The notes under the pieces were generated by a model. It made no database searches, was not told the origin of the DNA, and saw nothing but the letters and a program-made list of their open reading frames with translations. Positions 1 through 37,629 of a stretch of 37,629 nt of DNA are shown here, piece after piece. A program made the position numbers and the translations under genes. The stretch's first letter is position 1. The number at the start of each line of letters is the position of its first letter. Source of the DNA: a virus; the IMG/VR virus record IMGVR_UViG_3300037473_000262; one strand, 5' to 3'.

Positions 1-127
1 TGTGACGCGAGACCACTCTGCAAGGCCTGCAGATACAGCGGATTCTGCTGCGTGAGCGCGCCCTGCGTGCCGAGTTCCTGCGCCAGCAACTGCTGCCACG
101 ATTGATCGGCCGTGACGAGTCCGGTCG
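1..127. repeat. Terminal direct repeat; nt 1-127 are identical to nt 37503-37629 (closure overlap of a circular or circularly permuted genome)
   Basis: Both ends read tgtgacgcgagaccactctgcaagg...cgtgacgagtccggtcg, 127/127 identical. The repeat lies inside an open reading frame. Confidence 0.95.
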
Positions 128-251: not shown

Positions 252-596
252 CTAACCCTCCTTCAGTGTTTCGGGATCGGCGACGCTTTCGGCGTGGATG
301 CAAAGCCACGTCAGATCAGAAAGCGCCTGAATACGGTGCGCCTTGCCGGCCTTCACTTCCAGCATGCGCGGAGCCTCGAGAATGCTCAGCACGCCGTCGA
401 TCTCGATCATCGCTGTGCCGCGCGCGAGATAGCTAAGATGGTCGTACTCGTGCACATGCTTCTGCACCTCCTCGCCGGCGCGAAGCGTCTGCTCGCGCGC
501 GTACACACCGCCCGCGAAGTGGTGCTTTATATCCATCGCGGGGACCGCGCCCATGACGGCCGGAAGGGCGTGCATCATCGCTCGCACCTCAAACAT
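252..596 (-). CDS. Cupin-fold protein (small beta-barrel with a metal-binding-type motif)
   Basis: ORF track, 114 aa. KHVHEYDHLSYLARG and VKAGKAHRIQA resemble cupin motifs 1 and 2. An alternative start at 578 gives an ATGA overlap with the upstream stop and lies behind GAGG. Confidence 0.65.
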   Translation of the reverse strand: MFEVRAMMHALPAVMGAVPAMDIKHHFAGGVYAREQTLRAGEEVQKHVHEYDHLSYLARGTAMIEIDGVLSILEAPRMLEVKAGKAHRIQALSDLTWLCIHAESVADPETLKEG

Positions 597-1138
597 ACGA
601 TCAGCGTTATGCGGTCATCCTGACCGTCGTTGATCACCTCGTGCATCTTCGAGTTATCGAAGTACCAGACAGACCCCGGCTCCATGCAAACCCGCTCGTC
701 CTCGACGACGTTCACGCATTGCGGATTTGATTGGAGAACCACGTACAACTTCGTGTTGTAGTAGTCGGCATGCCACCCGCCGTCGACATGCGGTTCAATG
801 CGGCCACCGGGCGGAATACGCGTGATCAGGATGCCACCCAGCCGCGTTGCTTCGGTGCGAGCCATCATGGCGTACACAATCGGTCGTGCCTGCGGGAGCG
901 CGAACCACTCTGGATAGAAGATCGACTCGTGCTGGTCGTTAAACGTCGACCAGTCGCCAGATGCCTTGTGCGGCTTCTCATCGTTGTATCTCAGCCAGAT
1001 ATCGTCCATCTGCGAGTGCGGGCCGTCCGGAATCTCCTTCCGGTAACCATGACGATTCCACAGTCGCGGCTGGCGAGACAGAGCCAATAACAGTGGCGCT
1101 GTGTCCAGTCCGCGGGCGATCTGTACGAAATTCCTCAT
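575..1138 (-). CDS. Aspartyl/asparaginyl beta-hydroxylase-family (2OG/Fe(II) oxygenase-like) protein
   Basis: 187 aa. RIPPGGRIEPHVDGG ... WYFDNSKMHEVINDGQDDRITLIVCL matches the PG..I.PH.D / W.FD.S..HEV.N...R family pattern. Its start overlaps the holin stop. Confidence 0.7.
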   Translation of the reverse strand: MRNFVQIARGLDTAPLLLALSRQPRLWNRHGYRKEIPDGPHSQMDDIWLRYNDEKPHKASGDWSTFNDQHESIFYPEWFALPQARPIVYAMMARTEATRLGGILITRIPPGGRIEPHVDGGWHADYYNTKLYVVLQSNPQCVNVVEDERVCMEPGSVWYFDNSKMHEVINDGQDDRITLIVCLRCER

Positions 1139-1512
1139 GCCTTGCCCTTCACGCGCTCAGCCACATGCAACCCACCCAGGCCAAGCATGCCGAGCGTCAG
1201 CGTACCAAGTTCGCTCATGTCGAGAGGAGGCAGGCTCAACGGATGGCCGTAGATCGAAGCGCCAGCATTCAGCAACGGCTGCAACACGAAGTTCCACGCG
1301 TAACCCGCGACGCAAACCCAGCCCATGCCGCCGCGCCAGTGCTGCAGCGGGTCTGTGCTCTGGGCTTCGGCCTGGTTGATCGATAACTGCCCTTGCACCA
1401 TCGCAAGTACTGCGGAAAGTTGCTGCTGCTCCTGCACCGACTTGTCCGGCCAGATTTTGCTGACTATCGTCTGCGCCAGATCGAGTCCGGCGGTAATGGG
1501 ATCAAGTGCCAT
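1135..1512 (-). CDS. Holin, '3TM holin for gene-transfer release' type
   Basis: 125 aa. The N-terminal IVSKIWPDKSVQEQQQL...INQAEAQS...HWRGGMGWV pattern is followed by hydrophobic segments. The gene sits directly next to the endolysin. Confidence 0.7.
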   Translation of the reverse strand: MALDPITAGLDLAQTIVSKIWPDKSVQEQQQLSAVLAMVQGQLSINQAEAQSTDPLQHWRGGMGWVCVAGYAWNFVLQPLLNAGASIYGHPLSLPPLDMSELGTLTLGMLGLGGLHVAERVKGKA

Positions 1513-1933
1513 CGTTATCTCCCGTGAGCATCATTGTCGCCAGGCGTTGCGCGCGAGCGCCGACCTGTTTGGCCCACTTTGAATCGAGCATCTCGTCATG
1601 CGCAGCCTGCCAGTTACCTTGCCTGGCCGCGGCGAGAAACTGCGTGAATTCCAGCAGACCGCCGAGCATGTTGAACGCCATGTTGACGATCACGCGCTGC
1701 CGCACGGCGTCGAGGCCGCGCCACCACGGCAGATTGCGATCTAGCCACGCCGTCGTGCGCGCCACGTCGTTAGCCAGCAGCGCATCGCACTCGGCGTCGG
1801 AGATACCGACGTCCGTCAGGTTGCGACCGACGCCGATCGACGTCTTGCCGACAGAGTCGACGTACGGCTTCAGCTCACGACCCTCGTCGCGGCTCAGTTC
1901 GGCCACCATCGTCTGCATGTCGAACGAAGTCAC
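1502..1933 (-). CDS. Endolysin, glycoside hydrolase family 24 (T4-lysozyme-like)
   Basis: 143 aa. SRDEGRELKPYVDSVGKTSIGVGRNL carries the E-x8-D-x5-T catalytic spacing of T4-type lysozymes. Confidence 0.9.
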   Translation of the reverse strand: MTSFDMQTMVAELSRDEGRELKPYVDSVGKTSIGVGRNLTDVGISDAECDALLANDVARTTAWLDRNLPWWRGLDAVRQRVIVNMAFNMLGGLLEFTQFLAAARQGNWQAAHDEMLDSKWAKQVGARAQRLATMMLTGDNDGT

Positions 1934-9881: not shown

Positions 9882-11264
9882 CTATCGCATCCGCCGCCAG
9901 CGAAGCGTCCCGGTAACGGCTGAGGTGCCGCCGCTGTAGGTTGTCTGGCAGACGAGAAAAATCTGCGTCGCCACGGCGAGCTTGAATATCTGTCGCGGCG
10001 CGGGCATATCCTGATTGCCAGCGGTCATCGCCCATTGCCATTGATATGCAGTCCCGATGCCCGACACTGTTGCGGAGGTGGTACTGAGGCCTGCGATGAT
10101 GCTGCTCACTGAGGTCGTGCCCGAATATGTGAAGTGAACATCGCCCCATACCTCCCAGTCGCCAGGCTGCAAGGTCTGGCTTGCGGCATTGGTGATAGCC
10201 AAACTTGCGGCAGATGTGGGGCCGGTCTGAACCGTTCCTGACTCGCCTACACTTCCCGCGTTTGCGTTATTGTTGGTGTTCGTGCCGATGATGCCGCCGG
10301 TCTGCGACGGCTGGATAGAGCCGAGCACAGACAGGTTTCCGGCGTCGGTCAGCGCGAGCGCGAGCGCAGAGTTCGCATCGTTCGCGATCCCGAAGGTGCC
10401 GTTCACCACGCGCAGGTATTTCGTCGGCGTCGTCGAGCCGTTGCCGGTCATGTGGATGTTGGCGCCCTGCGACCCGGTGTTCGTCACCTGCAGCGTATTC
10501 AGGCCGTTCGAGGGCTCCGTTGCGCTGAGCGTGGTGAATGCGCCTGCCGCGGGTGTTCCGCTCCCGATTGCCGGCGGGTTGAGGAACCGGTCCTGCACGA
10601 AGAAGGTGGTCGCGAGCGCGTTGCTGCTGTCCGTGCGCGATGGGCTCGCAGCAGCAACAGCCGTCGTGAGCGTCGGAGATGTGCCGAATACCAGGCTTCC
10701 TGAGCCGGTTTCGTCGGAAATGACGCCAGCCAGCTGCGCAGACGTTGTCGAAGCGAACTGCGCGAGCGTTCCGGATGTCGACGCCAGGCTCAATGCCGAA
10801 GCGCTTTGGAAAGCGGGATCGGCGCCAGTACCCGTGGACGAGAAAATGGTACCTGCCGCACCCGGAGCGGCGAATCCGACGCCGGCCGTACCTTCGCCAA
10901 TCAACACGTTGTGCGCGCTCAGCGCGTTTTGACCGGTGCCCCCGCTCGCGACACCGATTGCAGAGGAAGTCGACAGCGATACGCCGGAAATCGTGCCGCC
11001 GGTAATGCTCACGGCGTTCGCGTTCTGATTGGCCATCGTGCCGGCCGCGGCGCCGTTCACTTTCGACACGACAGGATTCGGATACGTGCCACTCAGGTCG
11101 CCACCCGCTGGCCCCGTGGGGGGCTCAGGCTCACCAACCAGCGCATTGAGCGCAAGGGTCATCTGACGTGCAAGTGCGTTTAGCGCAGCCTGGATCTGTT
11201 CGGGCGGAACATCCTTCCCTTCCGCCCGAACGATCGGTGCCTGAATCAGAAACTGGTCAGCCAT
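9882..11264 (-). CDS. Fibre-like protein (460 aa) located between the portal/protease genes and the head genes
   Basis: The start was set at MADQFLIQ (11264), overlapping the upstream stop. GDLSGTYPNPVV and ISDETGSGSLVFGTSPTLTT are motifs typical of phage tail fibres. It shares the GNGSTTPTKYLRV..G.F.I.ND...D.GNL module with 2828..3475. Confidence 0.7.
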   Translation of the reverse strand: MADQFLIQAPIVRAEGKDVPPEQIQAALNALARQMTLALNALVGEPEPPTGPAGGDLSGTYPNPVVSKVNGAAAGTMANQNANAVSITGGTISGVSLSTSSAIGVASGGTGQNALSAHNVLIGEGTAGVGFAAPGAAGTIFSSTGTGADPAFQSASALSLASTSGTLAQFASTTSAQLAGVISDETGSGSLVFGTSPTLTTAVAAASPSRTDSSNALATTFFVQDRFLNPPAIGSGTPAAGAFTTLSATEPSNGLNTLQVTNTGSQGANIHMTGNGSTTPTKYLRVVNGTFGIANDANSALALALTDAGNLSVLGSIQPSQTGGIIGTNTNNNANAGSVGESGTVQTGPTSAASLAITNAASQTLQPGDWEVWGDVHFTYSGTTSVSSIIAGLSTTSATVSGIGTAYQWQWAMTAGNQDMPAPRQIFKLAVATQIFLVCQTTYSGGTSAVTGTLRWRRMR

Positions 11265-11601
11265 CGAGAGCCCCCACTCGATCGAATGTCGAGGGATGAA
11301 GCGGCCCGCTGCCATGCGGGAAGCGCGTTAGGAATGAGCGCAGGCCACGCGCTTCGCCGCGCTCTTTCACGTATCGATCCGCGGCGAATTCCTGCTCGTG
11401 GCATCGCGCGAATACCCACTGTGGCCGGAAAACGATTTGCAGCGTCATCACCCACCAGAGCCGACGCAACGCGTCGTGCTTTACGATGTGAGCACGCTCG
11501 TGCAACAACACCGCGGACTTCTCTGCCTGCGTCAACCGTTCGAAGAAGTCGCCGGTCTGGATCGTTCCCCACGGCGTACACCGCGCAACAAATGGTTTCA
11601 T
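11257..11601 (-). CDS. Small HExxH zinc-metallopeptidase-like protein (M48/M56-type motif), 114 aa
   Basis: LLHERAHIVKHDALRRLW is followed by HEQEFAADRYV. There is an ATGA overlap with the portal stop, and the 3-prime end overlaps the next start. Confidence 0.6.
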   Translation of the reverse strand: MKPFVARCTPWGTIQTGDFFERLTQAEKSAVLLHERAHIVKHDALRRLWWVMTLQIVFRPQWVFARCHEQEFAADRYVKERGEARGLRSFLTRFPHGSGPLHPSTFDRVGALDG

Positions 11602-13787
11602 CGCGGCCCCGCAGTCGGAGATGCCATCTGGTCAGGATGAATCGCGCCGGGCGGCTGCTGCGGGCGCGGGGGAGCCGGCTGGGCACCGGGTCGTGGCGTA
11701 CCGGGCACGCCAGGGCCCACCCCGCCGGGCACGCCTGGTTGACCTGGCTGTTTCTGTGGACCCATCTGCTGTTGCAACTTCGCCTGCATCGCGGCGACGT
11801 GTTGCTGCACGTGCGCGCGGAACAGGCCCGACGGATCGCCCGTCAGTTGCGCCGCCTGCAGGTGCGACTGAATGTGTCGACGATCATCGTCAGCCTGATG
11901 GATCTCGGCCTGCAGACCGTTGTGCATCATCAGGTTCTCGTCTTCCGGATCGATGTGGAACATGTTGCGTTCGTCGATCAGGATGCGCGGCGCGACTTCG
12001 GGTCCGAATATCTGCTCGGTGCCGTACTCGAGGATCGGGCCGATGTTCAGACGGCGGCCGTCGAGCTGCTGCGGCGGGATACCACGCAGCACGTTCATCC
12101 ACGAAATCATCTGCTGCATGCGCTGCAGGTTCTGCTGGTACGACGTGCCGCACCACCGGAAGAAATACCGCTCACCGAATGCCTGCGGCGGGATGACCTG
12201 AAGGTTTGCGCGCGCGCCAACTTCGCCGAGCACCTCGACCGTCAACTCTTCCGTGCGGAACTGCCGGTCCAGTTCGAACATCCACTCGAGCAGCGGATTT
12301 AATATCACCTCTTCGTAACGCTTGGCGTTGTCGATGATGTTCGATTCCTGAGCTGCAGACATTGCGGCAATCTGCTGAGCACCCTTTCGACCAGCGGGCA
12401 TCTTGCCGAGCATGGCGTCGTTGACGTCCATCGACTCGTTGATCTGCTGCTTGAGGTTCTCGCACAGAGGGATCGCGTCTTTGTAGAGCGCCGGGAAGTT
12501 GACGAACTTCGTCTTGTTCGGATCCGTCAGCCACACCGCAGCGAGACCCACCACCATTGACTGATAGCTCGGGTTCGACAGAGGGTCGACCATCGTGATC
12601 GGCAGCAGGCTGTACTGCGCCGAGTCCTGCCCCATGTTCCAGAAGTCGTTCAGGTTCCACTGCAGGAACTTGACGGGTTCGATCTTCGACACGCCGAAGA
12701 AAGATCCCTGGATTCGCTCGATTGGTGCCGACAGGATTGGTCGTTTTCCAGACCAAAATGGGTTGCGGATAATGCCAAGAATTTCGTCCTGGCCTGCGAA
12801 ATAGACGTAGCAGGGTTCTTTGCCGTTACCGAGGTCGAGATTGGTGTGGCATTCATAAATCAGCGCGTACTTGAAGGTGCCTTCAGTGCGGATACCGGCG
12901 TCGCCGGTGCGCTTCTTCGGCGGCACGTATTTTTCGCGGCCGCCGTCCGGTTTCGCGAGGTTCTCGACAAGTTCTTTCGCCGAGTGCCCGAGAAAAATGC
13001 CTTCGTCGATGAATTGCTGGACTGCATCCTTGTCGAGCCGGAGACGGATGCACGATGCAGTCGCCTTCTCTATGTCGTTGCAGGTCGGCGGATAGACTGC
13101 GAGGTCTTCGGTCGCGAAAGGTACGATGTCCGGCCCTTCGGTCGTGACCTCTTTCGTCTCCGTTTCCCACGTCCAGTCGTCGTCTTCCGCGGCAACATCC
13201 TGAACCTCGACGCCAAGCTCGGCGTTTTCCAGAACCGGCGGCTTCCTGATCAACTCGCGGACACGGCGCTGCGTCTTCGACCAGTCGATATACAGGTTCC
13301 ACTGGCCGGTGACGTCTCCCGCAATCAGGTCGGTGCGCACCGCATCCTTGACGTTGGCCGAGCGGATGTAATGCTCCAGCAGACTTACCTGCGCGAACGG
13401 AATGTTGCCGTCAGGACCAGTGGCACCAACATGCTTGTGATTGACGGGAAAGAGCTGCGCCAGCGTGCGCTTCATGCGCGCGTTCACCGCGTTGCGTACG
13501 GCCGGGATGTAGCACTGGCTATTGCCGGAGTACTGCTGGTTTTCGTCCGGCTGAGCGTTGTAGATGGACCAGTACTCCATGATCCGGTCCATCTGCTCCT
13601 GCTTGTTCTGGTAGCACTTGGCGAGCTTGGGGTATAGCCCCGCCGCGTCTATGTAGGCATCGGAATCGGGCTGGTCAGCCCAGTTTTCTAGCGGTTCGCC
13701 TGACTTCTCAGCGTCGATTGCCCGCGAGTCAATTTTCTCGACCGCGGGCTTGTCGTCCTGCTTTTTCTCACTTTTTCGGCGGGCCAT
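11598..13787 (-). CDS. Portal protein (729 aa) with a Pro/Gly/Gln-rich C-terminal tail
   Basis: The call rests on size, on position just downstream of the large terminase, and on the conserved-looking N-terminal YSGNSQCYIPAVRNAVNARMKRTLAQLFP region. The low-complexity C-terminus reads QKQPGQPGVPGGVGPGVPGTPRPGAQPAPPRPQQPPG. Confidence 0.75.
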   Translation of the reverse strand: MARRKSEKKQDDKPAVEKIDSRAIDAEKSGEPLENWADQPDSDAYIDAAGLYPKLAKCYQNKQEQMDRIMEYWSIYNAQPDENQQYSGNSQCYIPAVRNAVNARMKRTLAQLFPVNHKHVGATGPDGNIPFAQVSLLEHYIRSANVKDAVRTDLIAGDVTGQWNLYIDWSKTQRRVRELIRKPPVLENAELGVEVQDVAAEDDDWTWETETKEVTTEGPDIVPFATEDLAVYPPTCNDIEKATASCIRLRLDKDAVQQFIDEGIFLGHSAKELVENLAKPDGGREKYVPPKKRTGDAGIRTEGTFKYALIYECHTNLDLGNGKEPCYVYFAGQDEILGIIRNPFWSGKRPILSAPIERIQGSFFGVSKIEPVKFLQWNLNDFWNMGQDSAQYSLLPITMVDPLSNPSYQSMVVGLAAVWLTDPNKTKFVNFPALYKDAIPLCENLKQQINESMDVNDAMLGKMPAGRKGAQQIAAMSAAQESNIIDNAKRYEEVILNPLLEWMFELDRQFRTEELTVEVLGEVGARANLQVIPPQAFGERYFFRWCGTSYQQNLQRMQQMISWMNVLRGIPPQQLDGRRLNIGPILEYGTEQIFGPEVAPRILIDERNMFHIDPEDENLMMHNGLQAEIHQADDDRRHIQSHLQAAQLTGDPSGLFRAHVQQHVAAMQAKLQQQMGPQKQPGQPGVPGGVGPGVPGTPRPGAQPAPPRPQQPPGAIHPDQMASPTAGPR

Positions 13788-27448: not shown

Positions 27449-27783
27449 CCGACAACCTGTCTATCGTCGGCGGTCGCGCGATGACCATCCGGGAGGTCGC
27501 CAGGATCCTGCGCGTGTCGTACGGAACGGTCTACGCGCACCGCGCCGAGATGGGTTTCTTCCAGATCGGCGCGGCGTGGCGGGTCTTCCCTCAGAAGCTC
27601 CAGGAATTTCTGGACGGTTATAATCAGCCCCGGCCGGCGCGGACGGATAAGGAAACTGTATGTCAATCCGAAAACGTGGAGACGTGTATCACGTTGACAT
27701 CCGCAAACCAGACGGCGGTCGAATTAGATGCTCTGCTGGGACCGACGACCGCAAGAAGGCGCAGGAGTATCACGACAAGTTGA
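27445..27783 (+). CDS. xis: Excisionase-family HTH protein (HTH_17/AlpA-like)
   Basis: MTIREVARILRVSYGTVYAHRAEMGFFQIGAAWRV is the HTH segment. The gene sits directly upstream of int, with an ATGA overlap to the upstream gene. Its 3-prime end overlaps int by 124 nt. Confidence 0.65.
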   Translation: MTDNLSIVGGRAMTIREVARILRVSYGTVYAHRAEMGFFQIGAAWRVFPQKLQEFLDGYNQPRPARTDKETVCQSENVETCITLTSANQTAVELDALLGPTTARRRRSITTS

Positions 27784-28715
27784 AGCATGAGCTGTGGCGC
27801 GTGTCGAAGCTTGGCGAAAAGCCGTCGCGTTCGTTCGACGACGCGGCGCTGAGGTTCCTGAAGGAACAGTCGAACAAGGCGGACTTCGACAGCAAGAAGC
27901 GGCACCTGAAGCACTTTCGGTCGGTCTTCGCAGGTCGGGAGTTGGGCTCGCTCAAGCGGGACGAGATTTACGACGCACTGCCCGACGTCGACCTGCGAGT
28001 GAAGACCGAAGACAGGCCAGTCGCCAATGCGACGAAGAACCGGTACCTCGCCACCATCCGGGCAATGCTGAATGATGCGGCGCACGATTGGGAGTGGATC
28101 GACAAGGCACCGAAGCTGCCTGATCTGGAGGAAGGAAGCAGCCGTATCCGGTGGATCACGCGCGACGAGGCGCAGCGTCTGCTGGGCACTATCCGGACGG
28201 AGTGGATGCGCGACGCGACGATCTTCGGGTTTGCGACGGGGCTCCGGCAGGCGAATATCCTCGGTCTCGAATGGTCGCAGGTTGACCTCGTGCGCAAGCG
28301 CGCATGGGTGCATCCGGACCAGGCAAAGGCGAGAAAGCCTATCGGCGTGCCGCTGAACGCGGAAGCGGTCGAAGTGATCCGGCGGCAGATCGGCAAGCAC
28401 CAGACGCACGTGTTTGTCAGGAACGGGAAGGTTCTGGAGTATTGGGACGCAGTGCAGTGGCGCCTGGCATGTGGGCGGGCCGGAATCGAGAACTTCACGT
28501 TTCACGATGTCCGGCACACCTGGGCCAGTTGGCATGTTCAGAACGGTACGCCTCTGAACCGGCTAATGGAGCTTGGCGGCTGGTCGACGTACGAGATGGT
28601 TTTGCGTTACGCGCATCTCGCACCTGATCATCTGGCACAGCACGCCGACGCGGTCACAATCTGGGCACACAATACGTCGGAGAATGTGGGCACAGGTAAC
28701 AAAAAAGCCGGCTAG
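27660..28715 (+). CDS. int: Tyrosine integrase
   Basis: 351 aa. ATGLRQANILGLEW (Arg), FHDVRHTWASWHV (HxxR) and LGGWSTYEMVLRYAHL (catalytic Tyr) are present. The gene is adjacent to the tRNA fragment. Confidence 0.92.
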   Translation: MSIRKRGDVYHVDIRKPDGGRIRCSAGTDDRKKAQEYHDKLKHELWRVSKLGEKPSRSFDDAALRFLKEQSNKADFDSKKRHLKHFRSVFAGRELGSLKRDEIYDALPDVDLRVKTEDRPVANATKNRYLATIRAMLNDAAHDWEWIDKAPKLPDLEEGSSRIRWITRDEAQRLLGTIRTEWMRDATIFGFATGLRQANILGLEWSQVDLVRKRAWVHPDQAKARKPIGVPLNAEAVEVIRRQIGKHQTHVFVRNGKVLEYWDAVQWRLACGRAGIENFTFHDVRHTWASWHVQNGTPLNRLMELGGWSTYEMVLRYAHLAPDHLAQHADAVTIWAHNTSENVGTGNKKAG

Positions 28716-28746: not shown

Positions 28747-28805
28747 TTGGCGGAAAGGGTGGGATTCGAACCCACGGTACGGTATAACCGTACACCGGAT
28801 TTCGA
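28747..28805 (-). other. attP core: 3-prime 59 nt of a tRNA-Ser(CGA) gene (anticodon loop to CCA end); not a complete tRNA
   Basis: The reverse complement reads CTCGAAA-TCCGG-TGTACGGTTATACCGTACC-GTGGGTTCGAATCCCAC-CCTTTCCGCCA. That gives an anticodon loop with CGA, a long variable arm, a T-arm and an acceptor 3-prime strand with CCA. The 5 nt upstream (AATCA) cannot pair with TCCGG, so the 5-prime half is missing. Confidence 0.8.
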
Positions 28806-29949: not shown

Positions 29950-30758
29950 AGTTCTACGCTACTGCCAACGTCGCTGCGTCGATCCGGAAGGCTCACGAGG
30001 ATTTCACTCACATCCTCGTGAACCGCGGCTACACGACCATCAAACCGGTGTTCTTCCAGAGCGGCAAGATTGCCGACCTCCCGGTTTTTCAGTGGGCATG
30101 GTGGCAACCGGCAACCTTCGGCCAGCTCGAGCGATGGCGAGCCGCTGGCGGCGTACTGATCGACCAGTACACGTATTCGGACAAGTCAGGCGTGGCCGAC
30201 GTGCTGGTGTTCGTCGAGTGCCCGATGACCATGGATCGCATCAACCGGTGCGCGCAGCCGATCGTCGATTACACGGTCATCCCGCGCCCGCACACGTGGA
30301 AAGTGCACGAGCAGTGCATCGATCTGCGTACGCCGACGGCGGATGCGTTGCGTCCCATGTGGCAGGTGTGCCGGGGACAACGAGTGACCGACGCGCAACT
30401 CGCCGAGGCTACAGGTTTGCCGAAACAGCACGTGCAGTACATGCGCGCGGGCCTGAAACCGGTCGAAGAATGGCAGATCCGGCCAGGTTTGCCGCCGGAA
30501 TTCGCTGGCTTCGCGGACGCGTGGCGCTGGATTGGCACCGGACGATGCGCCAGCCGGAAGGACGTCCGGGAGGCGGGTCACAAGGCGGCCGTAAAGGAGA
30601 TGGCGCGGCTTGGCCACGTCCGTCTAGAGAAGATCCACCGTTATCCGGACGGAGAGCCGGACTGGCAGCGCATCGAGCGCAAGCGCGCCGCGGCTATTGC
30701 CGATCTGGCTGCAGTTCGATCGTTACTTGAGGGACTGCCTGACCATCTGTCAGTTTGA
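29946..30758 (+). CDS. Hypothetical protein (270 aa) with an internal HTH-like segment; GTG start coupled to the lipoprotein stop
   Basis: There is a GTGA start/stop overlap at 29946-29949. The protein-like sequence begins at VKFYATANVAASIRK. The track's longer N-terminus (RGYFRVRRWWWRPHR) looks out of frame. The HTH-like segment is VTDAQLAEATGLPKQHVQYMRAG. Confidence 0.6.
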   Translation: MKFYATANVAASIRKAHEDFTHILVNRGYTTIKPVFFQSGKIADLPVFQWAWWQPATFGQLERWRAAGGVLIDQYTYSDKSGVADVLVFVECPMTMDRINRCAQPIVDYTVIPRPHTWKVHEQCIDLRTPTADALRPMWQVCRGQRVTDAQLAEATGLPKQHVQYMRAGLKPVEEWQIRPGLPPEFAGFADAWRWIGTGRCASRKDVREAGHKAAVKEMARLGHVRLEKIHRYPDGEPDWQRIERKRAAAIADLAAVRSLLEGLPDHLSV

Positions 30759-31227
30759 TGACGGTCTGGCGTATTTCCTTGATGCGCGGGGCGTTCTGGT
30801 GGTAAAGCGTGTTCAGCTCGCTCAGTGCGTGTTCGATTTCCCGGTCGCCCGCCACCTGCTGATGGCCGCCACGCAATGCAATTGCCGCCTGCAGCTTGAC
30901 CTTTGCCATCGCTGCACTGTCTGCGACGTCCATCGTCGCAAGGCTGTGCAACTCTTCGATGCCTACCACCTTGTAGGCAAGACTCAGGTCCGCGAGCCGG
31001 GTTTCAAATTGCTCGATGCTCATCCGGGAATACGCCGGATCGACCTTCACCTTCTCGATCGCCGCCGCAAAGTTCTGAAGCTCGGCCGAAGACCGGATGT
31101 AGCGATCCAGCTCCTGGGCCGTGCAGTCGAGCGTGGTCGACGCCAGGAAAATGTCGCCCTTAGCTTCGGTGAGCGCTTCCTTGATGGCCTCTTCGGAAAT
31201 CAGGCCCGCCCTCTTTGCACGCATCAT
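30694..31227 (-). CDS. Putative DNA-binding protein (177 aa) with a Fis-like HTH near the N-terminus; last gene of the late operon
   Basis: The start was set at the ATGATG at 31227. GDIFLASTTLDCTAQELDRYIR is the HTH-like segment. The track's upstream extension is Arg-rich and overlaps the 74-aa ORF. Confidence 0.6.
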   Translation of the reverse strand: MMRAKRAGLISEEAIKEALTEAKGDIFLASTTLDCTAQELDRYIRSSAELQNFAAAIEKVKVDPAYSRMSIEQFETRLADLSLAYKVVGIEELHSLATMDVADSAAMAKVKLQAAIALRGGHQQVAGDREIEHALSELNTLYHQNAPRIKEIRQTVIKLTDGQAVPQVTIELQPDRQ

Positions 31228-31249
31228 CACCCGTCCCACCCTTCCCGGT

Positions 31250-31474
31250 TCACTTTTTGCCCCGCATCGGCATTTTCGGTGCGGTTTTGCGCGTGCCGCC
31301 GGCAACGCTCGAATACCGCTTCGCTTCCTTCGCAGCATGAGCCTGCGCCGCCGAGTGGCGCGAACGATCCTGCATGATCTCCTGGGCGCGGGCAAGGGTG
31401 TCCGCATCCGACTGCGCCCGCCAGCGCTTTTCGTCCGCCGAGATCGACGGCGGCGCGGCCTTCTTCGTAGCCAT
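31250..31474 (-). CDS. Small basic protein (74 aa) with Lys-rich termini
   Basis: ORF track: MATKKAAPP...KTAPKMPMRGKK. It lies directly downstream of the ATP-grasp gene. Confidence 0.6.
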   Translation of the reverse strand: MATKKAAPPSISADEKRWRAQSDADTLARAQEIMQDRSRHSAAQAHAAKEAKRYSSVAGGTRKTAPKMPMRGKK

Positions 31475-31486
31475 CCTGTTCTCCTG

Positions 31487-32830
31487 TCAGTAACTGAGAC
31501 CTTTCGCGTAGCCCATGCGCTGGAGGTCAGGCAACTGCTTTTTCAGCCGGCCGACGCCGATGTCGGTGCGGTAGAACGGGCTGTTCGGGATTTTGACTTT
31601 TTTGATCGCGCTGTAGGCGGATCGTCGCGCACCGGTGATCGTGTCCCCGGTACCGGTCGCGATCATCACGTAGTCGCCGGCAGTGACCGGGCCTGGCAGG
31701 TCCACGACCTTGCCGTTCACCTCACGTGGCGCAACTCCCATCATGACCTCGGAAAAGTGCAGGTGGTCCATATCTTCGGCGCCGTAGATCGGAATTCCGC
31801 ACAGTTCCTTGTTCGTGATCTTCGAATACGGAAAGTCCGGCAGGGCCATCAGCACAGACACGCATACCTCATCCATCCGGAGCTTTATCGTGTCTTTCCC
31901 GTTGATCTTGTCGACCATCCACTGCGCCGGGTCGCCTTCGATCAGAGCGGTCAGGTTGTGGCGGATCGGCCAGCCGTCGCGCATCGTCCACTCGAGGGGA
32001 AACGGGCCCTTGCCGTCCGTGGGGATCATGCAGTTCACGTCGACGTAGCCGACATAGCCAATGCGGTGCAGGTGGTCCGTCGCGGGCTTCAGCACCTCGT
32101 CGGCCAGCTTCGACTGGCGAACGACGCGCACGGTAGTGCCCATCTCGCCGGTGTTCACGCCGAGATCGCCGTTCATCAGCTTCTTGTTTTCCCAGTTCTC
32201 GACCCAGCCCTTCGACCAGCCATCGGGGCCGAAGAAGCCGCCAACGGCCATTTCGATACCGTCGATCTTCTCCTGCAGGATGAAGCCGTCTTCGCGTGCG
32301 GCGGCGCGGTATCTGTCGATCTTCTTCCAGCGGCCGAGCATGTACACCATGTCGGCCGCATTGTTGGCTACGTACGACATGGCGCGCTCGCCATCGCCGG
32401 ATGGTTTGGAAACGAACGGTTTGGCGTTTTTTTTCACGTACGCTATTGCTGAATCGTAGTCGTGAAAAGTCTTGCCCGGAATGATGCGCATGCCGCACTC
32501 TTCCATGACCTTCTGACCGACGCCGCGGTCCAGTTCCCACTCGACGGCCGCCAGATTGCACCCGTAGATCGGGTAGCCGATCTTCCGGAAGGGCTCAAGC
32601 ATCTCGAGGTACGAGACGTTATCCGGTGTATAGATGAGGTCCGCCCAGCCGAGCCACTTGCGACGCAGCTCGTCATAGTCGCGGATCTTCGGCACGAACC
32701 CCTCGCCGGCATGACGGTCCGTTCCGTCGGGACGGGGCTTGTCGTACCATAGGACCTGATGCCCCCAGTCCTGGCAACGCATCAGCCAGTCGAGGCAGTT
32801 CGATCCGACGTCGATTGCTAGAATTCTCAT
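31487..32830 (-). CDS. PurD-like (phosphoribosylamine-glycine ligase family) ATP-grasp enzyme, 447 aa
   Basis: It is collinear with PurD as I recall the family: KPFVSKPSGDGERAMSYV (compare IVIKADGLAAGKGV), LQEKIDGIEMAV (compare EEFL.GeE.S), GDLGVNTGEMG (compare D.GPNTGGMG), PLEWTMRDGWP (compare IEFN.RFGDPE), and the C-terminal VTAGDYVMIATGTGDTITGARRSAYSAIKKVKIPNSPFYRTDIG. Confidence 0.8.
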   Translation of the reverse strand: MRILAIDVGSNCLDWLMRCQDWGHQVLWYDKPRPDGTDRHAGEGFVPKIRDYDELRRKWLGWADLIYTPDNVSYLEMLEPFRKIGYPIYGCNLAAVEWELDRGVGQKVMEECGMRIIPGKTFHDYDSAIAYVKKNAKPFVSKPSGDGERAMSYVANNAADMVYMLGRWKKIDRYRAAAREDGFILQEKIDGIEMAVGGFFGPDGWSKGWVENWENKKLMNGDLGVNTGEMGTTVRVVRQSKLADEVLKPATDHLHRIGYVGYVDVNCMIPTDGKGPFPLEWTMRDGWPIRHNLTALIEGDPAQWMVDKINGKDTIKLRMDEVCVSVLMALPDFPYSKITNKELCGIPIYGAEDMDHLHFSEVMMGVAPREVNGKVVDLPGPVTAGDYVMIATGTGDTITGARRSAYSAIKKVKIPNSPFYRTDIGVGRLKKQLPDLQRMGYAKGLSY

Positions 32831-32854: not shown

Positions 32855-33142
32855 ATGAAACGGCTTATTCCATTCGCTCTTTTATGCATAGCGGGTAGCG
32901 CCAATGCATGGGGACTCGCTGGATTGGGCTGGTATCAGACCTACCAGTACGGGGCCCCTCCGCCCGTTCAGGTACAGCAACCCAGCTACAGCGACAGCTA
33001 CAACCAGGGCTACATGGACGGCTTCAATGAAGCGCATGGCCTGATCGGACGCCATGGTTACGGCACGCACTACGACGAGGGGTATAAAGCGGCTCGTCAG
33101 TCGGTAGAGGCGACGTATCAACTCAACCGCCCGGCGTACTAG
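32855..33142 (+). CDS. Small secreted Tyr/Gly/Gln-rich protein (95 aa); opposite-strand moron candidate
   Basis: GGGAGA lies 5 nt upstream of the ATG. The signal peptide is MKRLIPFALLCIAGSANA followed by WG. This is the only plus-strand gene inside the late operon. Confidence 0.65.
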   Translation: MKRLIPFALLCIAGSANAWGLAGLGWYQTYQYGAPPPVQVQQPSYSDSYNQGYMDGFNEAHGLIGRHGYGTHYDEGYKAARQSVEATYQLNRPAY

Positions 33143-35225
33143 GGAGTTGCTCTGCTCCCTGGCCATATGCGGCGCGCAGGGATCCCATCGCGGCATTGCG
33201 CACTGCCGGCGTGCCACCCGAATACGCCTTGCGCAGCAACTCGCGCCCGCCCTCGGTTAGCAACGCCTTCGATGCGATGTAGGGGGTCACGACTGCCGCC
33301 ACGCCAGCGACTGGGTGCGTAAAGAGCAGCCCTCCGGTCCCGATCATGTGCGCCGCGGCGCTCGTCCCGGACGGATTGGCTCCCGTGCGATCGCCCGCAC
33401 GCGACATCGTGTCCGTCACGTCTTTGATGTCCTTGATCTCTTTCGCCGTGAAGCCCATGTCTGCGAGCTTCGGCTCAACGCGATCGATCTCGCGCCGGAA
33501 CTTCGAGAACGAGATACCGGACGCGCCGGGAGCGGTATTGCGTGCCTGCTCGAGTCCGTTGCGCAGCACGAAAGACTTTGCGTCCTGCAGGACCTGCGGC
33601 GCATGCTCACGCAGGATCGCCGTCACCTGCGCCGCCTGGCTAGGCTCCATCGACAGGTAGCGCTTCGCGATCGCTTCGGGCGCCTTCGTCGAGAAGGTCT
33701 CGCCCGTGAATGCAGCGTCCGTCACATCCTTGCCGAGAAGCTTGCCAAGCGCAGACTGGTCGATGAACTCGATCGATTTCGAGGCCTTCGCGTAGTTCTG
33801 GTTGGCGTCTTTTAAAGCTTTCGCGATAGGCGTGTCGGCGGTGCTCGCTGCGTCGAAATCCTTGTTGACAGCGCCGAACAGCCGGCGCGCCAGTACCTGG
33901 TTTGCGTTGGGATCAATGTCGGTGAAGATGTTCCCGGTGCGCCGCGCGGCCTTTCCCCATGCCGAGCGTGTCTTCATCGCGTCGGACACGGTCGTAGACT
34001 TCGCTCCCGCCACGGGCGGCGGGGGAACGCTGGCCGGTTTTCCGGTTGGCAACAGGATCGGCGACGCCTTTTGCACAGTCGGCGTTTCGGTAAGTTGGTC
34101 GAGAAGGCTTCGAGCCTGCTTCGCGATCTTCACCGCATCGCCCGCCGGCACGTTCTCATTCTCGCTGATGATTTTCTTCAGCTCGTCGACCGTGTTCTGA
34201 TACTTGATGACAGGCTTGTCGCCCGCGAGCGCGCGCACCTTTCCGTAGTCGGCCGAAGCCTGCTTGTCGCGCGCAGCCGCGATCTTTCCCACCGTCTCGG
34301 TATATGCGCCACGCAGCCTGTTCCCGATGGACTCGGCATCCGCCGTGCCCCCCGCGCTCAGCTGGTCGGCGAGTTCGTTCACGCGTCGCGCGCCGGCGGC
34401 CACCTGCCGCGCCTCATCGGCATTCGCCGTACCCTTCGATGGAAAGAGTTCGCGTAGCCTGTTCTCGAGGAATTGCAGCGACGAACTTCCGGTTTCCTGC
34501 CCCAGTGTCAGCGGGATACCTGACGATTCGGCCGCGCGCGCTGCTTCGCTTTGCGGGGGCCTCGCGATCTGACTCGGTCGCGTCGTCGCCAACCCACCGC
34601 CAGCACCGCCGAGCAACGTGCCAGCGATGCGCCCGGGAGTGCCGAACATGTCCTGGCCCGCCTCGCCGCCGATCGCCCCTCCCACCTGCGGTAGCACGCG
34701 TCCGAGCACCGTTTCACCGGCGCCAGGCAGTGCGGCGGCTGGCAGAGCCCGAAGAGCTGCGGCGCCATATCTCTGTGCGGTTGAGCGCGGCTCCGCCGAC
34801 GGACCGATGACACCGACCTTCTTCATCGCCGCCTGCAACGCTTCGTCACCAACCGGAAGGCTTTTTGACGTCGTCGGGAGTTGCGGCGCAGTCTTCTTTC
34901 CACCCGTGACGATGTCGAGCGCCTTGTTGAAAGCCTTCGCGGGAAGATCAACGAGGCTCTGCGCTTTCTCGGCAATCGGGCCAACCGTATCCGCAACGCC
35001 CTTAGCCAGATTGCCGCCTACGAACCCGGCCACGCTTTGCGGCGGCTGAGCCGGTGCAGGCTTTGCAGCAGGCGCCGCAGCGCCGCCCGACGCTGGCGAC
35101 GAAGCGCCCGAAGGTGGGCCGAGTCGCTGCTGCAAGATCGCGAAAGCCTGCTCCTTTGTAGCGCCTTCAGGACCCTGGACGTCATAGTTCTTCCCGTCCG
35201 GCGAGGTGAACGTGAATGTCGGCAT
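33123..35225 (-). CDS. Large internal virion / ejection-type protein (700 aa)
   Basis: The start was set at MPTFTFTSPDGKNYDVQGPEGATKEQAFAILQQ (ATG at 35225, TGATG overlap with the upstream stop). It has an Ala/Gly-rich low-complexity N-region followed by a long helical body. The function is inferred from position. Confidence 0.6.
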   Translation of the reverse strand: MPTFTFTSPDGKNYDVQGPEGATKEQAFAILQQRLGPPSGASSPASGGAAAPAAKPAPAQPPQSVAGFVGGNLAKGVADTVGPIAEKAQSLVDLPAKAFNKALDIVTGGKKTAPQLPTTSKSLPVGDEALQAAMKKVGVIGPSAEPRSTAQRYGAAALRALPAAALPGAGETVLGRVLPQVGGAIGGEAGQDMFGTPGRIAGTLLGGAGGGLATTRPSQIARPPQSEAARAAESSGIPLTLGQETGSSSLQFLENRLRELFPSKGTANADEARQVAAGARRVNELADQLSAGGTADAESIGNRLRGAYTETVGKIAAARDKQASADYGKVRALAGDKPVIKYQNTVDELKKIISENENVPAGDAVKIAKQARSLLDQLTETPTVQKASPILLPTGKPASVPPPPVAGAKSTTVSDAMKTRSAWGKAARRTGNIFTDIDPNANQVLARRLFGAVNKDFDAASTADTPIAKALKDANQNYAKASKSIEFIDQSALGKLLGKDVTDAAFTGETFSTKAPEAIAKRYLSMEPSQAAQVTAILREHAPQVLQDAKSFVLRNGLEQARNTAPGASGISFSKFRREIDRVEPKLADMGFTAKEIKDIKDVTDTMSRAGDRTGANPSGTSAAAHMIGTGGLLFTHPVAGVAAVVTPYIASKALLTEGGRELLRKAYSGGTPAVRNAAMGSLRAAYGQGAEQLPSTPGG

Positions 35226-36688
35226 CAGTGCTCCGTCACCGACCATCCAGCCGGCAACCCTCCTGCGGGCGGAGCAGGATTCGCCATCGGCTTGCCACGC
35301 GTCACCGCGTCACGAAATTCTGCGCGCACCTGCCCAGGTGAACGCTGAGCAGCAGCCATCTCGCGTTTCATCATGCCGATCACCGACGCGTACTGCTCCG
35401 GGGTCTGCGCGGTGTTGAGCATTTCGCGCGCGTGCTCCTTATCCGACACCGTGGGGGTGCCGCTCGGGCTGACGGCACGCGCGTACGCATTGATAAGCGA
35501 GTTGGTGGCCGCGCCGAACGCGACGATCTTCGGATCGCCTGTGTTCGTCTGGTACGCGTTCAGTGCCTTGTTGGCGGGCACGAACTGGCTGCGCGGTACC
35601 GAGTTCGACGCCTCAAGCGCAATGTCGGCAAACTGGTCGGCTTCGTTGACAGCCATACCCGCCTGTGCAGTTCGCGTGCCGAGTGCGCGCTCGCCCGACT
35701 TCACGCCTTCGAACTCCGCGACGGACGCCGCCAGATCCTTCCCGGTCATGCCCTGTGCCTGCGCCTGTTTTCGCACCTCGTTGCGCAGCGCGACCAGATT
35801 CTTCGATCCCTGCGCGCCACGGCCGAGGTTCTGCAGTACGGTTCGGTCGCCGGCGAGATACTGCTGCGCCATGAACTTCAGGTCATCAGGATCGAGGGCC
35901 GCATTCGGGTCGCCCTGCAGACGAGCGTTCAGCGACTCGCGCCGGACGTCGAGCATCGCGCGCTGGATACCGAGTGAATCCTGGTGAGCCTGCTCGCGAT
36001 CGGCGCGGTTTGCCGCGTTGTCTTCCGCGCGCTGGCGCAGCGAGTCGTAGCGCTCCTGCAACTGCGCGAGCTGAAGTTGATGCGTGAATTGCTGCTGCAA
36101 CTGCGCGGCCTGCGTCTTCGCCTGTGAATCCAGAATCGGCGTGAGTTGCTGAAGACCAGCCATCAGGTCGGCACCGGAAAGGCCTTGATCCTGCAAAACC
36201 TTGATCGCGCTGTCGAGCGTGAGCGGCCCCGATTGCTGCTGTTGACCCGCTCCACTGGAAGCCGGAGGCGGGGGCAATTGCGACATCTGAGCCTGAGCCG
36301 GAGAACCCGAAGTCGGCAATGGCCTGAACGGAGGCAGTCCTGCTGGTGTCATTCCACCCTGCGAGCCGCCCGAAGGAAGCGGCGGACGCGGCAATTGACC
36401 GGGCACAGCGCCGGACGGCAAAGGCGCCCCGACCTGCCGCATCGGTACAGACGGCTGGCCCGGATTCGGTGCCTGAGGCGGGGGTGGAAGTTGCTGTTGC
36501 TGCTGACCGGCTAAAAGAGTCGGAAGAGCGTTACCTGCCGCGGCGAGCGCAGCCTGCTGACGTTGACGATCCTGCTGCTGTTGTTGAAATTGAGCCATCT
36601 GCATCGCCGCGTACTGACGCTGCAACGCCTGCTGTTGCGCAGCCTGCTGGTCTTGCAGATAGTAAGGAAGCCCGGATAGTCCAGCCAT
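35225..36688 (-). CDS. Internal virion / ejection-type protein (487 aa) with a Gln/Pro-rich N-terminal third
   Basis: ORF track. The first ~150 residues are dominated by poly-Q and PPPP tracts. The function is inferred from position. Confidence 0.6.
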   Translation of the reverse strand: MAGLSGLPYYLQDQQAAQQQALQRQYAAMQMAQFQQQQQDRQRQQAALAAAGNALPTLLAGQQQQQLPPPPQAPNPGQPSVPMRQVGAPLPSGAVPGQLPRPPLPSGGSQGGMTPAGLPPFRPLPTSGSPAQAQMSQLPPPPASSGAGQQQQSGPLTLDSAIKVLQDQGLSGADLMAGLQQLTPILDSQAKTQAAQLQQQFTHQLQLAQLQERYDSLRQRAEDNAANRADREQAHQDSLGIQRAMLDVRRESLNARLQGDPNAALDPDDLKFMAQQYLAGDRTVLQNLGRGAQGSKNLVALRNEVRKQAQAQGMTGKDLAASVAEFEGVKSGERALGTRTAQAGMAVNEADQFADIALEASNSVPRSQFVPANKALNAYQTNTGDPKIVAFGAATNSLINAYARAVSPSGTPTVSDKEHAREMLNTAQTPEQYASVIGMMKREMAAAQRSPGQVRAEFRDAVTRGKPMANPAPPAGGLPAGWSVTEH

Positions 36689-36697
36689 GTCGATACC

Positions 36698-37629
36698 TCA
36701 CTGCAACGTGAATCCGTACGAGTTCCCGCCGCCGCTGTAATAGGGACTCGAATTGAACGCGCCGCTGAAATCTCCGCCACTGAACGATCCGCTGGCGGGA
36801 TTGAAAAGGTTAGAAAACGCGTTTTGCACCTGGGTATTGTTTCCAATTCCCTGAATGGCGTTCGACACAAGACTTCCTGCCGCTCCTGCGCCAGCCGACT
36901 GTGCCTGGAACGGCACGGACTGTGCGCCATTGCCGTAGTTCAGATAGGGGATGATCTGGCTGTTGATCGCACTGGCCGAAGACAGCGGCCCCTGCTCGAG
37001 CTGCTGCTGATAGGTCGCAGCAAGTTGGCCCGGCGCTGCGGACAGCCCCATTGCGGTCTGGTATGGCAACTGGCCAGCTTCGTACGTAGCACCTGCACCT
37101 GCCTGCCCCAACGTCGCACCCTGTCCTGCCAACTGTCCTGCCTGTCCCGCAGCCTGACCGTAGCCCTGCAGCCCCTGCAGCGCGCGCGACAGCTGGTTGT
37201 TCTGCCAGTCGATGTTGAAGTTCGACAGCGCCTGGTTCTGCACACCGGCGCCGGCAGCCGACGAGCCGAGACCGTACATGGAGTTGGTCGCGCCGGTCTG
37301 CTGCGTGACCTGGTTTAGCGTGCGATCGTATAGCGCGCTTTGCGGGTCCAGGCCCATGTTGAAGACCTGTTGCCCAGCGTTCAGCAGACCCTGCTGCGCG
37401 CCGAAATCTAGGCCGGCAGCGCCCTGCAGTTGGGAACCCAGATTGGCATACTGGCCACTCGCCATGTTGGCGTACTGCTGCGCGCCGGCCCCGTACTGGT
37501 TTTGTGACGCGAGACCACTCTGCAAGGCCTGCAGATACAGCGGATTCTGCTGCGTGAGCGCGCCCTGCGTGCCGAGTTCCTGCGCCAGCAACTGCTGCCA
37601 CGATTGATCGGCCGTGACGAGTCCGGTCG
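36698..37629 (-). CDS. C-terminal part of the junction-spanning Gly/Gln/Asn/Ser/Tyr-rich virion protein (continues at 128..248)
   Basis: The reading frame is open to the window end and joins 1..248 in frame through the 127-nt overlap. Low-complexity Q/G/A/N composition runs throughout. Confidence 0.8.
   Translation of the reverse strand, partial: TGLVTADQSWQQLLAQELGTQGALTQQNPLYLQALQSGLASQNQYGAGAQQYANMASGQYANLGSQLQGAAGLDFGAQQGLLNAGQQVFNMGLDPQSALYDRTLNQVTQQTGATNSMYGLGSSAAGAGVQNQALSNFNIDWQNNQLSRALQGLQGYGQAAGQAGQLAGQGATLGQAGAGATYEAGQLPYQTAMGLSAAPGQLAATYQQQLEQGPLSSASAINSQIIPYLNYGNGAQSVPFQAQSAGAGAAGSLVSNAIQGIGNNTQVQNAFSNLFNPASGSFSGGDFSGAFNSSPYYSGGGNSYGFTLQ
37503..37629. repeat. Terminal direct repeat, the second copy of nt 1-127
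   Basis: 127/127 identity with the window start. Confidence 0.95.

Follow-up and report, generated by a model that had tools for sequence, protein, structure and literature searches.

PurD, the phosphoribosylamine (PRA)-glycine ligase or glycinamide ribonucleotide (GAR) synthetase (EC 6.3.4.13; PDB 2YW2, 1GSO, 2QK4), is the closest described relative of the protein analyzed here, a 447-amino-acid (aa) PurD-like ATP-grasp ligase encoded by IMG/VR virus record IMGVR_UViG_3300037473_000262, a stretch of 37,629 nucleotides (nt) that we refer to as the window. The two proteins share the N-B-A-C domain architecture, the ATP-grasp core, a C-terminal YRxDIG motif, and a TM-score of about 0.7. The window ligase differs from PurD in its low identity (about 20%), a score below the equivalog cutoff, an extra C-terminal helix, the absence of pathway context, and its location in the virion module. 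Overall, we consider it quite probable that the gene encodes a non-PurD ligase that is functionally tied to the virion module.

PurK, PurT, biotin carboxylase, and the L-amino-acid ligases (YwfE/BacD) use the same acyl-phosphate or carboxy-phosphate chemistry. They have a similar three-domain layout and a weaker structural match to the window ligase than PurD, and none of their Pfam/NCBIfam models matched it. RimK, tubulin-tyrosine ligase (TTL), LysX, and the graspetide maturases offer a possible functional analogy through ATP-dependent amide formation on a carboxylate or amine of a protein. The window ligase shows no specific affinity to them in sequence or fold: none of these enzymes is among its 50 best PDB matches, and the TM-score of viral RimK/TTL-type proteins is at most about 0.36.

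Two virion systems are also relevant. The P22 and T7 ejection cassettes resemble the locus in that the ligase follows a three-gene cassette, whereas the ejection proteins themselves are not of this enzyme type; the literature on ejection proteins that we examined mentions no ligase companion. T4 Alt and the "polyvalent" effectors fused to MuF or portal proteins are the second comparison: domains fused in this way are taken as head-packaged, injected effectors, and no ATP-grasp/amidoligase effector is described among them (PMC5512222). The viral ligases likewise reside in the head/virion module, with one portal-MuF fusion, although most of them stand alone.

Fold and active site of the ligase

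The earlier note, made from the sequence alone, had described the protein as collinear with PurD over all domains, and both profile and structure comparisons bear this out. In hhalign, a profile of 21 family members aligned with E. coli PurD at 98.8% probability over 395 columns (residues 1-426). Foldseek ranks 1-15 in the PDB were all PurD/GAR synthetases (E 4.5e-30 to 4e-24, TM-score 0.67-0.73), followed by PurK, biotin carboxylase, PurT, and YwfE (E ~1e-18 to 1e-17, TM-score 0.55-0.65). The AlphaFold model, built on the family alignment, has a predicted local distance difference test score (pLDDT) of 88.2 and a predicted TM-score (pTM) of 0.87, with low-pLDDT loops near residues 141-150 and at 218-227 (J-loop).

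Sequence models recognize the protein incompletely. Plain HMMER detects only residues ~77-430; among the Pfam domains of PurD, GARS_A passes (37.7 bits, cutoff 27), GARS_C fails (34.1 bits, cutoff 34.8), and GARS_N has no match. The NCBIfam purD equivalog TIGR00877 scores the ligase at 89.6 bits, against a cutoff of 288 and a score of 631 for E. coli PurD. True PurDs, those with a GARS_N domain, are only 22-26% identical to the ligase, and the bit scores leave a gap between the two groups, with family members reaching at least 114 and true PurDs no more than 63.

The roles of the PurD substrate residues, in human numbering, are set out in PMC2978367 and PMC8880213, and we tabulated their counterparts over 150 diverse family representatives, the number aligned varying by position. 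Residues for ATP, Mg, and the acyl phosphate are largely retained. Lys219 of the DHKR motif (ATP and transition state) is kept in the family as Lys216, the Mg-binding Glu of E-x-N as Glu280, and Arg292, which contacts both glycine and the acyl phosphate, as Arg284; the second Mg ligand, the Asn of E-x-N, is Thr282 here and Thr in the family. In the J-loop, T-G-G of GPNTGGMG reads T-G-E (227-229), which is likewise conserved. Among the residues of the ATP-grasp core, adenine/ribose contacts included, Arg102, Lys142, Gln186, Glu193, Lys216, Glu280, and Arg284 are each conserved in at least 117 of the ~125 representatives aligned, and Glu99 is also kept.

The substrate residues present a different picture. 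Arg13 and Glu14 of GGREHA, which serve the phosphate/acyl-phosphate site and the PRA ribose, respectively (PMC2978367), fall in a segment that reads G-S-N-C-L-D in the window protein and is variable in the family, without a conserved Arg-Glu pair. PurD binds glycine through Asp217, Arg292, Asp295, and Glu297 in the DHKR and RFGDPE motifs (PMC2978367); Arg292 aside, these are Glu214 (Glu near-invariant in the family), Trp287 (Trp or Tyr), and Ile289 (hydrophobic or Thr in close relatives). Arg385 of the GGR motif, which faces the PRA/GAR site (PMC2978367), is Tyr387, with Tyr in 81 of the ~111 aligned representatives. Full conservation of the PurD substrate residues, plus complementation of a purD mutant, had been named beforehand as the sign of an ordinary metabolic gene; apart from Arg292, these residues are replaced. 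By these alignments the ATP, Mg, and acyl-phosphate residues are intact, and both PurD substrate pockets are predicted to be rebuilt, less charged and more aromatic. Because both substrate sites appear rebuilt, we conclude from sequence that the ligase is not a GAR synthetase.

Genomic context points the same way. Among the main open reading frames (ORFs) of the 37.5-kb genome, no other purine-pathway gene was found, as had been noticed at first reading. Across ~280 loci, the neighbours are virion genes or, in cellular loci, unrelated genes, with no purine context. Beyond the end of PurD, the family carries a conserved C-terminal helix (GRLxKQLPxLQxxGYAxGL, residues ~421-447), which could be a docking or oligomerisation element.

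Virion-module placement and family distribution

The tie to the virion module was evaluated in the window lineage, whose relatives (n=32 loci) were retrieved via the neighbouring 707-aa gene and not via the ligase. The ligase lies directly downstream of this gene in 32/32 relatives, is the best-conserved protein of the block (57-93% identity vs 36-85% for its neighbours), and is under strong purifying selection. This synteny, together with a spacing of 18-24 nt in relatives, supports the expectation in the earlier note that the gene is expressed late with internal-virion-protein genes.

The association extends far beyond the lineage. Neighbour clustering over 160 further viral loci recovered the same upstream trio, with cluster c1 at position -2/-3 in 38 distant viral loci. 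In hhalign, the 487-aa protein of the window matched c1 (100%, E 1e-41), the 297-aa protein matched cluster d1 (99.7%, E 3e-27, with a shared NFNIDWQNxQLxRAL motif), and the 707-aa protein, which has no direct Pfam or PHROG match, matched cluster c4 (89.6%, E 2e-6); mismatched control pairs remained below 1%. Cluster c4 in turn matches PHROG 26400, "DNA ejection protein" (E 7e-22). A same-strand protein of at least 450 aa occupies position -1 or -2 in 54/64 and 41/59 diverse viral loci, compared with 11/60 cellular loci and a chance expectation of about 29-38% from background ORF sizes. We take the sizes (297, 487, and 707 aa) and order of the window cassette to be like those of P22 gp7/gp20/gp16.

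Similar arrangements are found in distant phages. The order in L086/L087 (52.6 kb) is Phage_stabilise (the P22 gp10 family), hydroxylase, proteins of 250, 489, and 975 aa, two tiny ORFs, ligase, and tailspike, and the 975-aa protein carries a glucosaminidase domain. In uncultured phage MW202796, a stabilization protein, a GNAT protein, and three large proteins precede the ligase; in a Caldanaerobius prophage, it follows a 1369-aa SLT-domain protein. Cultured phage PfAn1 lacks the ligase and has the same frame of hydroxylase, acetyltransferase, and three annotated internal virion/ejection proteins. The cassettes of L086, with its peptidoglycan-hydrolase domain, and PfAn1, with its annotated ejection proteins, have the layout of the window cassette.

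Other lineages place the gene next to the portal. It immediately follows the portal in L093-L095 and lies between terminase and portal in the SU10-like L091/L092. In P0229, a 1236-aa ORF directly after TerL joins a portal (about 60-360), an ATP-grasp domain (598-1018), and Mu_F (1107-1229); this fusion is present on 3 contigs, one of 65 kb. Viral members of the family are always located in the head/virion module.

The family is large. A profile search of 1.84 billion cluster representatives returned 412 matches at E<=1e-30 and 1817 at E<=1e-10. As the whole family is too diverse for a locus scan with one alignment, subfamily alignments were used instead. The best 120 matches to the window ligase are 58-93% identical to it, many on 37-41 kb contigs, and the nearest proteins (93% identity) are in Burkholderia anthina and B. 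ubonensis genomes. Automatic annotation labels the family "phosphoribosylamine-glycine ligase". Neither PHROGs nor PADLOC contains a family matching the ligase, and the viral structure library BFVD holds no close match (best TM-score 0.48).

Inteins usually occupy conserved, functionally important sites of widespread proteins. The intein load of the ligase is unusually high: LAGLIDADG inteins occur in about one in eight top representatives (P0002 and about 19 others, e.g., P0127, P0128, P0185, and P0247). Insertion has taken place at four or more sites, each of them within the best-conserved motifs of the active site (between Asn226 and Thr227; between Gly231 and Thr232; after Thr282; and in D-V-N|C, residues 266-269), which supports the functional importance of those motifs.

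Finally, the ligase is not exclusively viral. A cellular subfamily with the same non-PurD signature (NFEHK...TGEMGT, LEFTxRFGYP) is common in metagenome-assembled genomes (MAGs) of DPANN archaea, Candidate Phyla Radiation (CPR)/Patescibacteria, Omnitrophota, Planctomycetota, and Thaumarchaeota, with at least 600 matches on contigs of up to 1.1 Mb and one example in a clearly cellular context. Its members (L124-L203) retain 56-77% identity across very different phyla. Their neighbours vary, with SET-domain proteins in ~9/80 loci, LPG_synthase_C-like proteins in 4/80, and both in some CPR genomes; these contexts give no hint of purine synthesis. In one further member, P0251 (L084, 277-1848), the C-terminus is extended by ~110 aa that include the HAD-type DxDxT motif FDLDKT, suggesting that a phosphatase-like domain is fused there.

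The window genome and neighbouring genes

The first 127 nt of the window (1-127) are identical to the last 127 nt (37503-37629); the genome is circularly closed, with ~37,502 unique bases. Owing to this terminal repeat, the minus-strand late operon is continuous over the window ends, running from the hydroxylase and cupin into the region from 37.6 to 30.7 kb. By gene content, the genome is that of a temperate phage with podovirus-type virion genes. Its lysogeny and regulation genes comprise a CI-like repressor, an integrase, and an Arc/HicB-like protein. Beside the integrase is a tRNA-3'-like sequence (sub-threshold Rfam match, 58.9 bits; no complete tRNA by ARAGORN), which probably serves as the attP core when the phage integrates into a tRNA gene of its host. 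There is no close cultured phage, the terminase sharing no more than 27% identity with any other in the phage database.

A single long minus-strand operon encodes a ParB-like protein, helicase, primase, large terminase, portal, scaffold, major capsid protein, tail fibre, endolysin, and a gene transfer agent (GTA)-type holin. It continues with the hydroxylase, the cupin, the circular junction, three large low-complexity proteins, the PurD-like gene, a 74-aa ORF, and a ~177-aa gene (Table 1). Plus-strand translation of the ligase interval contains many stops. The lysis genes, a GTA-type holin with three transmembrane segments and an endolysin, lie mid-operon and not at the operon end, with the tail fibre genes on one side and the hydroxylase/ejection cassette on the other.

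Table 1. Positions of the ligase, its motifs, and other features of the window (numbering of the 37,629-nt stretch).
Feature	Position	Strand	Remarks
PurD-like ATP-grasp ligase gene	31487..32830	minus	447 aa plus stop; ATG-to-stop ORF, translation
Ligase residues 9-14, G-S-N-C-L-D	32789..32806	minus	hhalign; replaces PurD N-domain G-G-R-E-H-A
Ligase Lys142, ATP-binding lysine of the ATP-grasp core	32405..32407	minus	Equivalent to Aquifex PurD Lys143 (role: PMC8880213); Lys in 125/126 aligned representatives
Ligase residues 211-232, E-N-W-E-N-K-K-L-M-N-G-D-L-G-V-N-T-G-E-M-G-T	32135..32200	minus	Corresponds to PurD DHKR...GPNTGGMG (J-loop); Glu214, Lys216, and T-G-E family-invariant; two intein sites
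Ligase residues 279-288, L-E-W-T-M-R-D-G-W-P	31967..31996	minus	Signature E-x-T-x-R-x-G-[WY]-P in place of PurD E-x-N-x-R-F-G-D-P-E; third intein site
Ligase residues 384-388, A-G-D-Y-V	31667..31681	minus	At PurD N-G-G-R-V; C-domain Arg replaced by family-conserved Tyr387
Ligase C-terminal helix	31490..31570	minus	Beyond the end of PurD
74-aa Lys-rich ORF	31250..31474	minus	In 3/32 and 11/106 related loci
~177-aa protein downstream of ligase	30694..31227	minus	In 99/106 lineage loci, 0 outside the lineage
707-aa protein, third and largest cassette member	33123..35246	minus	Directly upstream of ligase; synteny 32/32 relatives; hhalign to c4
487-aa Gln/Pro-rich protein, second cassette member	35225..36688	minus	hhalign to c1
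Gly/Gln-rich protein, at least 297 aa, first cassette member	36698..37591	minus	hhalign to d1; 5' end uncertain, ORF nears circular junction
Cupin_2 protein	252..596	minus	Between hydroxylase and cassette; Pfam PF07883, 1.5e-7
Asp/Arg beta-hydroxylase-family protein (Asp_Arg_Hydrox, 2-oxoglutarate oxygenase-like)	575..1138	minus	Pfam PF05118, 1.1e-15
GTA-type holin	1135..1512	minus	
Endolysin	1502..1933	minus	
114-aa HExxH ORF	11257..11601	minus	Right after portal gene
Integrase	27660..28715		
tRNA-3'-like sequence	28751..28803	plus	Beside integrase
95-aa ORF	32855..33142	plus	Antisense, between 707-aa gene and ligase

The cupin and the Asp/Asn hydroxylase-like enzyme do belong to the same operon as the ligase, as the earlier note had claimed: both are matched by Pfam on the minus strand, and the operon is continuous via the circular junction. 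Neither is a constant partner: both are facultative, with the hydroxylase in 16/80 and the cupin in 12/80 diverse viral loci (the cupin is present in 87/106 lineage loci). The hydroxylase has a homolog in distant phage L086 at 1.4e-53, and together with the ligase it forms the only pair of window proteins shared with L086 at the phmmer level. An obligatory pairing of the two was rejected, as PfAn1, DC33, and MW202665 encode the hydroxylase without the ligase and MW202796 encodes the ligase without the hydroxylase. In PfAn1 (L090, a Pseudomonas phage, PV364321), a "hypothetical protein" at 11626-12222, just upstream of the acetyltransferase and internal virion protein genes, is 40% identical to the window hydroxylase. 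The recurring companions of the cassette are small protein-modifying-type enzymes (Asp/Arg hydroxylase family, GNAT, and a cupin), compatible with a protein substrate and no proof of one.

The 74-aa Lys-rich protein downstream, also highlighted at first reading, exists as an ORF and is not a conserved partner. As a carrier or substrate it was rejected, given the few related loci in which it occurs, its absence outside the lineage, and no family matches in Pfam, PHROG, or NCBIfam. A second candidate partner, the HExxE ORF family c3 (at -1 in 22 loci), was likewise rejected, with no match in the "RHEIIE" stretch of P0229 or in the window and no Pfam/PHROG match. LysX/LysW-like ligases need a conserved small carrier beside the ligase, and in this respect the family differs: neither the 74-aa ORF nor c3, which is absent from both the window and P0229, is a conserved carrier. 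The ~177-aa protein has no Pfam or NCBIfam match; the listed 237-aa ORF (30694-31407) probably starts at an internal Met, giving ~177 aa.

Two loci raised a possible link to polyamines. In the Caldanaerobius polysaccharolyticus prophage (L122, 10001-11706), the ligase is followed by an AdoMet_dc-family gene overlapping its stop codon, and in L088 (264-3273) it is followed by LPG_synthase_C-like and arginase-family genes. AdoMet_dc and arginase neighbours occur at one locus each of ~280, and nothing relevant was found in PMC9992855; we retain this link as a weak lead only.

Two small ORFs of the window deserve mention. The gap between the 707-aa gene and the ligase is 292 nt in the window, compared with 18-24 nt in several relatives. 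The antisense ORF that fills it encodes 95 aa, with a signal peptide of typical form (MKRLIPFALLCIAGSANA), a Tyr/Gly/Gln-rich body, and no Pfam match; because it fills a gap that is so short elsewhere, it looks like an inserted moron. A clean HExxH motif (LLHERAHIV) marks the 114-aa ORF that follows the portal gene; its matches to the Pfam M48/M56 peptidases are weak, and it may be a small zincin-like head protein. Comparison of this ORF with the P0229 linker gave no similarity (E 2.9).

Proposed function and alternative explanations

We propose that the family consists of active carboxylate-amine ligases, in which ATP would activate a carboxylate as an acyl phosphate and an amine other than PRA would attack it. 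The more aromatic, less charged pocket suggests a protein or peptide substrate and not a phosphosugar, and so do the protein-modifying enzymes encoded nearby, which are the hydroxylase and GNAT in the phages and SET in the cellular relatives. Made late, the ligase would probably enter the capsid together with the ejection proteins. It would pass with the DNA into a cell where ATP is available and, as infection begins, join a group onto a target of host or phage origin, as T4 Alt or the MuF-fused effectors are thought to act. Packaging is suggested by the head-module placement and by the portal/MuF fusion, the latter being the criterion of PMC5512222. That the ligase is packaged with ejection proteins and acts in the newly infected cell is plausible, though we lean slightly against it. 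In its fullest form, the proposal describes a virion-delivered, PurD-descended ligase class in many podoviruses that would draw on host ATP early in infection to join a group bearing a carboxylate to a metabolite or to a protein of the host or phage, an amidoligase counterpart of T4 Alt with relatives co-opted by DPANN and CPR episymbionts. We offer this broader version tentatively and regard it, on balance, as doubtful.

Several observations weigh against the proposal. The second Mg-ligand Asn of PurD is Thr across the whole ligase family, and the catalytic detail may therefore differ from that of PurD. The portal/MuF fusion is rare and confined to a single cluster. A tblastn search of the phage genome database with three subfamily queries found no cultured phage with a family member; the sole member there is MW202796 (42% identity, ORF unannotated), and the other matches are ordinary purD. 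The cellular branch in DPANN, CPR, and other MAGs has non-viral neighbours, so the enzyme can work without a virion. Clues from neighbours are sparse, as the SET, LPG_synthase_C, AdoMet_dc, and arginase counts above illustrate. Accessory genes are often found where a late operon ends, and P22-type genomes carry non-structural genes downstream of their last ejection gene.

The alternative that survives best, unlikely in our estimate, is a maturation enzyme that acts on virion proteins in the producing cell, ligating an amino acid to one of the ejection, portal, or head proteins or forming an isopeptide there, in the manner of RimK, TTL, or graspetide enzymes. Such an enzyme need not be packaged. 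It would account for the tight linkage to the ejection cassette and portal, for the recurrence of Asp/Arg hydroxylase-family and GNAT enzymes at the same place (and SET in cellular relatives), and for the change of PurD's charged substrate residues to aromatic ones. However, no conserved candidate substrate motif was identified, and the ligase accompanies cassettes with proteins too diverged for phmmer to recognize, as well as head modules of very different kinds. The cellular branch, moreover, lacks such targets, and the portal and MuF fusion suits packaging better.

Alternatively, the protein could be a soluble late ligase for a small molecule, such as a polyamine or aminoacyl conjugate, whose position in the virion module is incidental. 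The AdoMet_dc (Caldanaerobius prophage), arginase, and LPG_synthase_C (L088) neighbours, the one member with a HAD-like extension, and the existence of a cellular branch fit this explanation, and phages do encode polyamine enzymes, including glutathionylspermidine-synthetase homologs (PMC9992855). We nonetheless find it distinctly improbable: the polyamine-enzyme neighbours are single loci, unrelated lineages place the gene in the head module too regularly for that position to be incidental, and the portal/MuF fusion is hard to explain for a metabolic enzyme. A catalytically dead PurD-fold protein with a structural or scaffolding role in the head interior is very improbable. The Thr at the Mg-ligand position, the head-module gene, and the homolog fused to portal would agree with it, but the ATP Lys, the Mg Glu, and the acyl-phosphate Arg are retained in nearly all of the 150 representatives, inteins target exactly those motifs, and the ligase is more conserved than its structural neighbours. 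Least credible of all, to the point of being extremely improbable, is an ordinary auxiliary metabolic gene (AMG), a working PurD that boosts purine synthesis in infection: a PurD-like fold, best sequence matches to PurD, the automatic name, and the counting of purD as an AMG in viromics surveys (PMC11360552, PMC11097641) are outweighed by a purD model missed by about 200 bits, the replacement of Arg13, Glu14, Asp295, Glu297, and Arg385, the absence of any other pur gene, the 22-26% identity of true PurDs, and the virion-module context, inteins, and portal fusion. The earlier note had left the choice between a plain AMG and an amidoligase with a non-canonical substrate undecided; the failed purD model and the replaced substrate residues speak against the former, and the tie to the virion module favours a ligase for another substrate.

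A non-PurD ligase tied to the virion module would bear on the biology of these phages in several ways. The fold, the chemistry, and the concept of packaged effectors are all known, whereas the combination of a PurD-derived ligase family with its own signature, ejection cassettes, inteins, and a portal/MuF fusion is undescribed in the literature searched; likewise, no ATP-dependent ligase has been linked there to podovirus ejection proteins. In viromics surveys, purD/GART is counted among the purine AMGs enriched in viruses (PMC11360552, PMC11097641); should the genes concerned be members of this family, their assignment to purine metabolism would be mistaken. The ejection proteins of podoviruses are themselves little understood, and a possible new step in the maturation of virions or in the early takeover of the host is directly testable, as inducible Burkholderia prophages carry proteins 93% identical to the window ligase. 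Overall, the family shows viruses adapting the fold of a core-metabolism enzyme to a new use, and DPANN archaea and CPR bacteria hold a sister branch of it.

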